A stretch of 64,000 nucleotides of DNA from a bacterium. GTDB taxonomy: Bacteria > Patescibacteriota > Minisyncoccia > Phycocordibacterales > DATDWN01. The position numbers and the translations under genes are program-made. Below, piece by piece: positions 16,922 to 19,018 of this stretch (position 1 is its first letter; each line of letters starts with the position of its first letter). The DNA is taken from positions 1,233 to 65,232 of the forward strand of contig JBAXLH010000004.1 in assembly GCA_037134875.1 (NCBI GenBank), read 5' to 3'. A model generated the notes under the pieces. It saw only the letters and a program-made list of their open reading frames with translations. It did no database searches and was not told the origin of the DNA.

Positions 16922-19018
16922 TTAAAAATCAATACTAAAAAGTGGAGCCCGTGTTGTTTGTCCGGCATAACTTTCTTTTTGTGTGTACTTTTCTGGTATG
17001 TCATCGAGAAATTCTGACGGAGAATTTATTTCAGTGTTGCCGAAAATCGTGCGTGTTTGAGCGTGCGTCAAGAATAATTTTTTGCCAGCGCGTGTAATCG
17101 CGACATAAAAAAGTCGTCGCTCCTCTTCTCGATCCTCCTTTGTCTTCTTGTCGCCAAAACCTTTGTGTGGGAAAAGGTCGGATTCGAGTCCGGAAATAAA
17201 TACGTACGGAAACTCGAGTCCTTTTGATGCGTGGACAGTCATAAGTCGCACACCGGTTTTTTGTCCATCAAGAGAATCTTGGTCGCCAGCAAGAGATGAA
17301 TCTGTCAAAAACTTTTCAATTCTCTCTGTTCCGATTTGTTCGGAATTCCCACTTTCATATTCATCATATTCTTTTGCGAGTGATACGAGCTCCATAATGT
17401 TTTCAAGTCTCTCGGTGTCCTCCTCTGTACCAGTCGAATACATTTTTTCTATTCCTGATTTTTCTATGATGTATCGGATAGCGTCAGATGGTTTCTCTTT
17501 TTCTAAAACATTTCTAAAATCCAAAAGTGTTTCTCTGAAATTCTGCAATTTTATTTTCATACTAGCGGGCAAATCATTTTCTGCTCCAGCTACGATTTTC
17601 TGTACAGATGTTTTACCAATACCTCTCGGAGGAATATTTATAATCCGCGCAAAGTCGCCGAGGGCATCGTAGTTGAGTGATGCTCTCACAAAAGACAAAA
17701 CATCTTTGATTTCTTTTCTCTCAAAAAATTTTGTGCCGAGCATTTGGTATGGAACATTGAATGCTAGAAATGCCTCCTCGAGAGCTCGCGACTGAAAGTT
17801 GGCTCGATACAACACTGCTATTTCATCGGCACTCACACCGTTTTCAATTAGGTTTTTTGATTTGAAAGCGATAAACTGTGCCTCGTCTGTTTCGTTGCGA
17901 GCTTCAAATACACCGATCTCCTCCCCTATTTCATTTTCGGTAAAAAGTTTTTTTGGAATTCGAAATTCATTTTTTTGAATTATTTCATTTGCCACGGCCA
18001 AAATGTTTTTTGTTGAACGATAGTTTTGTTCCAGAAAAATAGTCGTGACGGTGGGATATATTTTCTCAAACCTGAGCATATTTTTTATTTCAGCTCCACG
18101 CCAGCTATAAATATTTTGGTCTGTATCTCCCACCACACAAATGTTTTTGTATTTTTGTGCGAGCAACTCCACAATATCGTTTTGAACTTTGTTGGTGTCT
18201 TGGTACTCGTCAATATGAATGTATTGGAATCTGTTTTGATATCTCTCCAAAACATCAGGAAATCTTTTGAAAAGTCCAAGCGTTTTGAGGAGTAGGTCGT
18301 CAAAATCGAGTGCTCCATCTCTTTTCAAAATATTTTCGTATATCTGCCAAACTTTTTTTGTTATCTCCGACGTGTAGTCGTATGCACCGTTTTCCATATA
18401 TTCGCCAACACTCGTACCACTTCCTTTTTCTTTGGAAATAATATGTCCGACTTTGTCCAAGTGTTCTTTTGGATCAATTCCGAGCTGTGTCAAAGCTTCT
18501 TTCATTGCCTTTTTTGAGTCTGACTTGTCAAAAATAGTAAAATATCTCGGCAAACCAAGCTTCTCGGCATTCTCTTTCAAAATATGTACGCCGAGAGAGT
18601 GGAAGGTACTAACGAAAGGTCTTGAAAATACGGAATGTGCTGAAGGAGAATGCTTTGACGGAACATTGCGCAGGTCGACGGACCGAGCACGAAGAAATTC
18701 GCCAGCAGGTGAATATTCTGTTTCCGGCAAAGTATTCTCTGAAGCAAATTCTGGATTTTCAAGAGAAAAGCAATCTTGATCATTTTTTTTATTGTCCAGC
18801 AATTTCATTACCCTCTCTTTCATCTCTTTCGCTGCTTTGTTGGTGAATGTGATGGCCAAAATGCTCTCTGGTGCCACACCTGTTTTAATAAGATGGAGAA
18901 TTCGATGGGTAATGGTTTTGGTTTTGCCTGCTCCAGCACCGGCCACAATTAAAACTGGTCCGTCAGTCGCCAAAACCGCCTTTTGTTGCTCTGTATTGAG
19001 GCTCGAAAGATAATTCAT
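16922..19018 (-). CDS. uvrD: ATP-dependent DNA helicase UvrD/PcrA, carrying an in-frame ~50-aa insertion between motifs I and Ia
   Basis: GAGAGKTKTITHRI (motif I), TFTNKAAKEM (Ia), TFHSLG, DEYQDTN. The extra segment NKKNDQDCFSLENPEFASENTLPETEYSPAGEFLRARSVDLRNVPSKHSPSAHSVFS is encoded by repeat copy B. Confidence 0.85.
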   Translation of the reverse strand: MNYLSSLNTEQQKAVLATDGPVLIVAGAGAGKTKTITHRILHLIKTGVAPESILAITFTNKAAKEMKERVMKLLDNKKNDQDCFSLENPEFASENTLPETEYSPAGEFLRARSVDLRNVPSKHSPSAHSVFSRPFVSTFHSLGVHILKENAEKLGLPRYFTIFDKSDSKKAMKEALTQLGIDPKEHLDKVGHIISKEKGSGTSVGEYMENGAYDYTSEITKKVWQIYENILKRDGALDFDDLLLKTLGLFKRFPDVLERYQNRFQYIHIDEYQDTNKVQNDIVELLAQKYKNICVVGDTDQNIYSWRGAEIKNMLRFEKIYPTVTTIFLEQNYRSTKNILAVANEIIQKNEFRIPKKLFTENEIGEEIGVFEARNETDEAQFIAFKSKNLIENGVSADEIAVLYRANFQSRALEEAFLAFNVPYQMLGTKFFERKEIKDVLSFVRASLNYDALGDFARIINIPPRGIGKTSVQKIVAGAENDLPASMKIKLQNFRETLLDFRNVLEKEKPSDAIRYIIEKSGIEKMYSTGTEEDTERLENIMELVSLAKEYDEYESGNSEQIGTERIEKFLTDSSLAGDQDSLDGQKTGVRLMTVHASKGLEFPYVFISGLESDLFPHKGFGDKKTKEDREEERRLFYVAITRAGKKLFLTHAQTRTIFGNTEINSPSEFLDDIPEKYTQKESYAGQTTRAPLFSIDF
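18628..18757 (+). repeat. palindromic repeat element, copy B, inserted in-frame inside uvrD/pcrA CDS
   Basis: Core ggaacattgcgcaggtcgacggaccgagcacgaagaaattcgccagcaggtgaatattctgtttcc (18660-18726). About 30-bp arms: ggaatgtgctgaaggagaatgctttgacgg / ccggcaaagtattctctgaagcaaattctgg. Confidence 0.65.

Follow-up and report, generated by a model that had tools for sequence, protein, structure and literature searches.

An in-frame hairpin-forming element of a Patescibacteria-wide repeat family, probably translated within a PcrA/UvrD helicase

The window analysed here is a 64,000-nucleotide stretch of contig JBAXLH010000004.1 (assembly GCA_037134875.1, positions 1,233 to 65,232 of the forward strand) from a Parcubacteria/Patescibacteria metagenome-assembled genome (MAG). 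On its minus strand it carries an intact pcrA/uvrD gene for a superfamily 1A helicase of 698 aa (16922..19018, window coordinates as throughout), into which a copy of a dispersed repeat, termed copy B, has been inserted. We conclude, with a probability of about 0.85, that copy B is a selfish element resembling the Rickettsia palindromic elements (RPEs), inserted in frame and translated within a functional helicase. Copy B would be a non-autonomous, hairpin-forming repeat of ~138-147 nt belonging to a Patescibacteria-wide family of selfish DNA of the RPE type. It would have entered the loop between helix α3 and strand β3 of the helicase, between motifs Ia and Ib, where its translation most likely gives a disordered loop of ~49 residues in an enzyme that still functions.

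Copy B encodes 49 codons of an intact helicase

The open reading frame (ORF) at 16922..19018 (-) runs uninterrupted across the insert, with no stop or frameshift that would mark a pseudogene. Pfam places the protein in the UvrD/PcrA family (UvrD-helicase 2e-84, UvrD_C 3e-67), and its best solved relative is G. stearothermophilus PcrA (1pjr, E=7e-153). The phmmer alignment falls into two blocks, query 4-78 matching PcrA 9-84 and query 135-681 matching PcrA 88-648, which leaves ~53-56 query residues against 3 in PcrA; all helicase regions downstream of the insert align to PcrA (1e-130). An identical protein (P0001) was found in four sources on three contigs, so that a one-off assembly error cannot account for the insertion.

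The inserted DNA is a 145-base imperfect palindrome (18620..18764), a stem capped by a three-way-junction core, whose plus-strand orientation is antisense to uvrD. Its outer arms (18620-18641/18743-18764) are 22 nt long and 86% complementary, its inner arms (18646-18663/18722-18739) 18 nt long and 89% complementary, and the whole has a folding energy of -68.4 kcal/mol (z=-9.0). Within the core, hairpin P2 at 18673..18684 (+) reads GGTC-GACG-GACC, 4 bp with a conserved GACG loop, and hairpin P3 at 18694..18718 (+) reads GAA-ATTCGCC / AGCA loop / GGTGAAT-A-TTC; the pairs of both hairpins covary. R1, a covariance model built from the alignment of the six family copies in the window, matches over its full length (1-94, stem P1 plus core) at 18645..18740 (+), with 77 bits and E=3.4e-16; on the minus strand of this site it gives no match at E<=10.

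Read on the minus strand, 18620-18766 is exactly 49 codons, residues S85-R133 (SLENPEFASENTLPETEYSPAGEFLRARSVDLRNVPSKHSPSAHSVFSR); peptides from the region include SVDLR, NVPSK and HSPSAHSVFSRPFVSTFHSLGVHILK. The insert length is divisible by three and its frame is free of stops, which keeps the gene open. The initial annotation, made from the letters of the window, had likewise attributed the extra helicase segment to a palindromic element with the reading frame preserved, and both statements hold. Its bounds for the insertion, 18628-18790, do not: the palindrome ends at 18764, and the codons for (L)DNKKNDQDCF at 18765..18796 (-) lie outside all inverted-repeat arms, at the position of the loop in orthologues. 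To judge by this placement, 18765-18790 (NKKNDQDCF) is probably a remnant of the native α3-β3 loop.

Position of the insert between motifs Ia and Ib, and its predicted disorder

In the structure of D. radiodurans UvrD, the TFTN phenylalanine belongs to motif Ia, which corresponds to β2-α3, and the threonine and histidine of TFHS belong to motif Ib (PMC3797037). On this assignment the insert falls in the α3-β3 loop between motifs Ia and Ib, and not between motifs I and Ia as initially proposed. The nearest orthologues, at 64-69% identity, are mostly 639-649 aa long. We aligned 120 orthologues and measured the loop between ERV..LL and PF.STFHS. The mode is 13 residues (66/120), against 59 in the copy-B helicase, an excess of ~46. 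The spacing of 6-10 residues first assumed for homologues is thus replaced by 13 residues plus PF.S in close orthologues and 3 in PcrA. About 110 of the 120 lack the insert, contrary to what would be seen if the segment were an ancestral domain.

An AlphaFold model computed with 68 homologues has a mean pLDDT (predicted local distance difference test) of 76. Residues 81-131 score ~30 (<50) and lack secondary structure, and the rest is folded; Foldseek aligns the model to DNA-bound PcrA/UvrD (3pjr, 2is6) with template modelling (TM) scores of 0.74-0.78. Helix 60-83, which carries motif Ia, precedes the stretch predicted to be disordered, and strand 135-138, on the way to motif Ib, follows it. 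The model thus predicts a disordered loop compatible with the host fold: the expectation that the insert maps to a loop is borne out, and the expected surface location would follow from the same prediction. Since the insert leaves the far end of a helix of ~24 residues, geometry would place it ~30 Å from the motif-Ia contact with DNA.

Six copies in the window share one architecture

Counting copy B, the window has six copies, with folding z-scores from -6.4 to -10.9. R1 finds exactly these six, at 77-102 bits on the plus strand and at most 19 bits on the other. The five remaining copies, all on the plus strand, lie between genes: at 414..533 (96.7 bits; fold z -6.4); at 20486..20625 (102.4 bits), between convergent genes for a LysM/M23 peptidase and a ComM-type Mg chelatase; at 28646..28750 (91.5 bits), between two minus-strand genes for a PilC-type component F of a type II secretion system and a CarboxypepD_reg-domain protein; at 39989..40101 (94.7 bits), between convergent genes for an exonuclease III family protein and a CCA-adding enzyme; and at 56061..56204 (83.4 bits), between convergent genes for an ABC transporter and ClpP. 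The ATG at 28673 that was called as start of the minus-strand gene 26838..28673 falls within the core of the third of these copies; an ATG near 28631 is the likelier start, so that this copy counts as intergenic.

In all six, a long stem ends in a three-way junction that bears two small hairpins, P2 (4 bp, GACG loop) and P3 (3+7 bp, AGCA-type loop), and 17 of the 28 pairs in the six-copy alignment show compensatory changes. Direct repeats do not flank the window copies; their flanks are inverted repeats. That all six copies stand on the plus strand whatever the gene direction (p ~0.03) does not extend to a rule for the family: co-orientation was rejected, as pairs of copies at other loci lie on the same strand in 8 cases and on opposite strands in 12.

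A 56-nt direct repeat (73% identity) at 37577-37632 and 39941-39996 shares AAGACATTGCGCAGG with the 5' part of the copy B core, and its second copy abuts the element at 39989-40101. It may be a fragment of the element or another small repeat.

The family is widespread in Patescibacteria

Scanning species-representative genomes for the conserved-loop pattern gave at least 111 loci. Nearly all are from Patescibacteria: Paceibacterota, Nomura-, Zambryski-, Taylor-, Yonath- and Moraniibacteria, Minisyncoccia and many Saccharibacteria. R1 confirms at least 121 further copies, 110 in the first 100 loci and 11 in the remainder; among the matches listed, pattern loci from unrelated taxa fail R1.

In the alignment of 110 copies, 92.7% of cells are paired compared with 65.7% after shuffling, all 28 pairs (28/28) show changes on both sides, and the covariation score is 0.684 against 0.186 for shuffled alignments (0/500 shuffles reach it) and at most 0.158 with slid partners; these figures are to be read with the caveat that the alignment was fitted to R1 itself. 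The core of ~54 nt is almost invariant in Paceibacteria-type lineages and Saccharibacteria alike, with the consensus GAGAC-UUGGG-A-(GCGC GACG GCGC)-GA-GCACG-(AGGAAUUUUU CAGCAG AAAAAUAUCC)-GU-GCUCU. The sequence of stem P1 differs in every copy and is nevertheless paired in each. A candidate pseudoknot would join the L2 loop to J3-1 (ACGG with CCGU), both sides of which are invariant.

Two apparent traits of the copies were rejected. The first was a tenfold excess of G.U on the plus strand (321 G.U vs 32 A.C mismatches), which seemed to prove a plus-strand RNA: a mirrored control gave 262 vs 230 G.U pairs, and the arms thus have no real strand asymmetry. A modest energy bias remains, the plus strand being the more stable in 101/125 copies among the matches listed. 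The second was very long unique stems as a trait of the family. The median of 37 pairs in minimum-free-energy folds is inflated by AT-rich flanks, and among the matches listed the outer flanks are at least 70% complementary in only 9/126 copies; long stems are a feature of the subfamily found in the window.

Against Rfam 15, only tRNAs reach the gathering score in the window, and no family, ribozyme or intron matches the element; E-value scans of copy B and copy c40009 return only sub-threshold similarities to generic hairpins (miRNA precursors). A database search with the five core peptides described below, concatenated, returned only 16 short fragments, and the literature searched gave no description of such an element in Patescibacteria. 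The family is widespread in this group and apparently undescribed.

Some copies stand close together, with gaps of ~20-70 nt (L050:5124-5371, L089:7219-7476, L030:1218-1470, L029:443-652 and L055:1525-1738). One of these pairs is a direct tandem; the inverted ones are head-to-head (minus then plus) in 4/4 cases among the matches listed. Such spacing and orientation suggest that elements insert beside or into one another. On a Saccharibacteria contig (L101:3940-4180, minus strand) a gene leader holds tandem core-only or P3-like hairpins (GATTTTTCAGCAGAAAAATAC, GATTTTTCAGGAGAAAAATAC, AAATTTCTAGCAAGAAATTA), with partial R1 matches (model 26-75) at 3990-4043 and 4104-4157 and, on the other strand, at 5038-5091; they may hint that P3 is a protein-binding unit in its own right.

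In-gene copies use only open frames

Among the matches listed, 21/116 copies lie within an open frame that is 150 codons or longer, 12 of them in sense and 9 in antisense orientation. The consensus core is open in five of its six frames, and five recurrent peptides are found among the in-gene copies: LERLGSATARARGIFQQKNIR, LRARRSEHEEFSSKKISV and LETWERDGASTRNFLAKKYP from sense frames, EHGYFSAEKFLVLAPS from the antisense frame used by copy B, and TDIFLLKNSSCSRRRA from another antisense frame. Only open core frames are used by the in-gene copies among these matches. The hosts are true housekeeping genes in which Pfam domains flank the element on either side. They include SecA, UvrB and DNA polymerase I (PolA). 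PheT carries it at the same site in three MAGs, and so does TsaD, where the host is confirmed by Pfam for L092 and the shared site is seen in the ORF sequences of the hosts. Further hosts are a phosphoglucomutase/phosphomannomutase (PGM/PMM, GlmM-type), a class-V aminotransferase (Aminotran_5, NifS-type) and a Saccharibacteria UvrD, in which the element occupies a position other than that of copy B.

To counter detection bias, genes split by the element were sought as a frame of at least 100 codons ending inside the element with another resuming from it. Among the matches listed, copies outside ORFs yielded 0 candidates, and five copies merely supply the 3' end of a gene. In the absence of split genes, gene insertions appear to persist only while the frame stays open, as expected from translation through the element and not from its removal at the RNA level. 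Because five of six core frames are open, insertions into permissive loops of essential genes would survive, and those that break the frame would be purged.

By context, the matches listed comprise 30 copies inside ORFs of at least 120 codons, 27 between convergent and 12 between divergent genes, 30 antisense and 18 sense between co-directional genes, and 10 at a locus edge or with no flanking ORF. No orientation preference relative to neighbouring genes was found, which argues for an element acting at the DNA level rather than a transcript-oriented signal. A terminator or mRNA element was rejected on the same ground, and because the stem has its T-run on the 5' side and its A-run on the 3' side.

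The same helicase loop has been colonised repeatedly

The α3-β3 loop reaches at least 27 residues in 9/120 orthologues. In one of them (P0044, locus L112) the expansion is a member of the same family (1723-1816, 47.6 bits, E=7e-9). It is sense to its gene and stands at another point of the loop, whereas copy B is antisense; the opposite strand and the different insertion point mean that the peptide of P0044 and its sister P0064 is unrelated to that of copy B and that the insertion was an independent event. The gene downstream of uvrD in the window is KsgA, and L112 and L113 share this arrangement. Loop expansions in P0028, in P0031 and in the UvrD of the Saccharibacteria locus L064 likewise take the form of palindromes with internal hairpins, and R1 matches none of them. 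Unmatched palindromes that expand this loop lie at L113:1720-1948, L114:346-400 and L064:4041-4178, the first with arm pairs of 35 nt and 17 nt around its internal hairpins; they are probably further element families of similar architecture. As the insertion points differ, we favour survival in a permissive loop over target preference as the reason for this recurrence. Two other Parcubacteria UvrD orthologues, P0085 and P0097 (L115:1501-4674), exceed 1000 aa and contain intein domains (PF14890), so that this helicase gene carries inteins in some lineages and palindromic elements in others.

The core is frozen while the arms change in mirrored fashion

Copies at orthologous sites within genes allow core, arms and host DNA to be compared directly. 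In PheT (L068 vs L019) the core is identical at 52/54 positions, the arms at 36/60 and the adjoining coding DNA at 67/98; in TsaD (L092 vs L073) the figures are 50/54, 23/51 and 68/98. The core thus keeps 93-96% identity where flanking coding DNA keeps 68-69% and the arms 45-60%, and is constant at the nucleotide level, third codon positions included. This constancy could come from in-place selection or from gene conversion with other copies as donors.

Comparing the sister insertions of P0044 and P0064 shows about seven differences in the arms, every one with its mirror image on the opposite arm; the arms of P0064, 27 nt long, are 100% complementary. The left arm of both is native helicase sequence, the conserved end of helix α3 (R-A-L-L/V-...), and the right arm is its inverted copy, including a mirrored Leu-to-Val codon change. 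Over conserved native codons 11/12 bases are complementary, for which we estimate a chance probability of ~2e-6. Since the right arm here mirrors host codons, the palindromes can grow into host sequence. Hairpin-templated copying, by analogy with quasi-palindrome template switching, would explain the mirroring. Quasi-palindromes are reportedly corrected by template switching during replication (Ripley; Lovett laboratory).

Other features of the window

In a region with two tRNA-Pro genes (44520-44910), the 3' half of the tRNA and the spacer occur a third time. The three repeats (family D4) lie at 44566-44616, 44709-44759 and 44860-44910, and the middle one is not called as a tRNA. The G+C content is 0.45-0.46 at 44001-48000 and 56001-60000, compared with ~0.38 elsewhere, and the cumulative GC skew rises steadily from ~44 kb onward.

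Discussion

The alternative that survives best holds that the core is a functional nucleic-acid module, either a DNA hairpin recognised by a protein or a structured RNA, under purifying selection, and that the peptide is a tolerated by-product. We consider this possible, though doubtful; in part it overlaps with the explanation we prefer. It would account for the contrast between core and surrounding coding DNA at the PheT and TsaD sites, for the near-invariance of the core and of its junction and loop bases (GACG, AGCA) between distant lineages, and for arms that retain their pairing through mirrored changes. Yet conversion from active master copies could likewise keep cores uniform, the lack of orientation preference with respect to transcription speaks against a cis-acting mRNA element, the strand asymmetry of pairing is weak, and no partner protein or phenotype is known. 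In a fuller and equally tentative form, the core would be a sequence-specific module conserved across Patescibacteria and held by purifying selection even at orthologous positions of essential genes, with a stem that extrudes in vivo and arms that are re-templated and absorb host codons. If true, protein loops would be remodelled by structured elements of a new class.

That the element is instead removed before the protein is made, by intron-like excision from the RNA or by an intein-like splice, is very improbable. The hairpin is very stable in the transcript of either strand, rRNA genes of the candidate phyla radiation (CPR) are known to carry insertions (PMC11665869), and P0085 and P0097 show that inteins do occur in UvrD orthologues. 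But Pfam finds no intein family in P0001, the insert of 49 aa is too short for one, and Rfam gives no intron or ribozyme match; removal should have left many split genes, of which there are 0 against 21-30 read-through copies among the matches listed, and it would not restrict in-gene copies to the open core frames. A helicase domain, whether ancestral or confined to a lineage, is a hardly credible origin for the segment, and it is as hard to credit that the gene is a decaying pseudogene: loop length does vary in Parcubacteria, but the segment is a full-length copy of a dispersed repeat that orthologues lack, the expansions of other lineages also consist of palindromes, from this family or others, and the ORF is intact with downstream helicase regions that align well to PcrA.

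We therefore retain the reading of copy B as an RPE-like selfish element translated within a functional helicase, against which four points weigh. No transposase adjoins any copy examined, the neighbours in the window being ordinary genes, nor was another mobilising enzyme identified there. Plain decaying selfish DNA does not predict a core that stays frozen inside genes. Translation is deduced from the open frame and the lack of split genes, not observed, and helicase activity is likewise a deduction. Finally, the orthologues compared include no close relative with an empty site. Mobility and the mode of movement are, like translation and retained function, inferences.

In-frame palindromes that code for protein have been described as a peculiarity of Rickettsia, and would now be known from a second, unrelated group with reduced genomes. 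This suggests that small genomes have a general means of tolerating selfish DNA and acquiring new protein loops, here in a phylum that is huge and mostly uncultured. For annotation, unexplained insertions in CPR proteins become recognisable and can be masked, and element-derived segments can be removed before alignment and phylogeny; R1 finds copies directly and is ready for use as a tool. With the frozen core and mirrored arms, hairpin extrusion and templated mutation in vivo become open to testing.

Relation to known repeat families

Repetitive extragenic palindromic (REP) sequences and their hairpin-forming doublets (REPINs) are mobilised by RAYT transposases; REPs are short, extragenic and marked by a GTAG-type motif. 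The present family is like them in consisting of long-persisting hairpin repeats that also form inverted doublets, the close pairs being head-to-head, but it enters genes, with about a fifth of copies intragenic, and is thus not strictly extragenic; no RAYT gene was seen, although none was sought. Quasi-palindrome correction offers a different kind of parallel. The mirrored arm changes and the growth into flanking host sequence in P0044 and P0064 could be explained by it, although it is a mutational process and not an element family.

Like the miniature transposable elements with inverted repeats (MITEs) of bacteria (Correia/NEMIS, ERIC, BOX, RUP, Nezha; PMC10969869), the elements are small, non-autonomous, multi-copy and hairpin-forming, and they are mostly intergenic, favouring convergent gene ends, with occasional in-frame fusion to ORFs. 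Unlike MITEs, they seem to have no fixed terminal inverted repeats, the conserved part being the centre and not the ends; no target-site duplication was seen, there being no empty site to define the ends, and no parent insertion sequence was identified next to the copies examined.

The closest parallel is with RPEs. RPEs (Ogata et al. 2000, 2002, by way of PMC10969869 and PMC1458961) figure as the textbook case of in-frame, MITE-like insertions (PMC10969869), and R. bellii is credited with 526 of them, 53 in genes (PMC1458961). As far as these sources describe RPEs, both families are dispersed hairpin-forming repeats of ~100-150 nt in small-genome bacteria, lie between genes as well as in frame within unrelated housekeeping genes whose ORF is kept and which acquire a conserved peptide, and have no transposase attached. 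What defines the RPE type is present here, namely stable hairpins in many copies and in-frame copies in open housekeeping ORFs, and the share of copies within genes is similar, about a tenth to a fifth (53/526 in R. bellii, 21/116 here among the matches listed). The likeness to RPEs, already proposed in the initial annotation, is strengthened because the same family sits in frame in many other genes, SecA, UvrB, PolA, PheT, TsaD and a second UvrD among them. The differences are also plain. The hosts belong to another phylum, Patescibacteria, and the likeness is one of behaviour; unlike RPEs, the element combines a variable paired stem with a three-way junction whose ~54-nt core is near-invariant across very distant lineages, and it uses five frames and both orientations, with arms that co-vary and can include host codons. 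By this analogy in behaviour, the family is a functional analogue of the Rickettsia RPEs and is not filed as a member of them.

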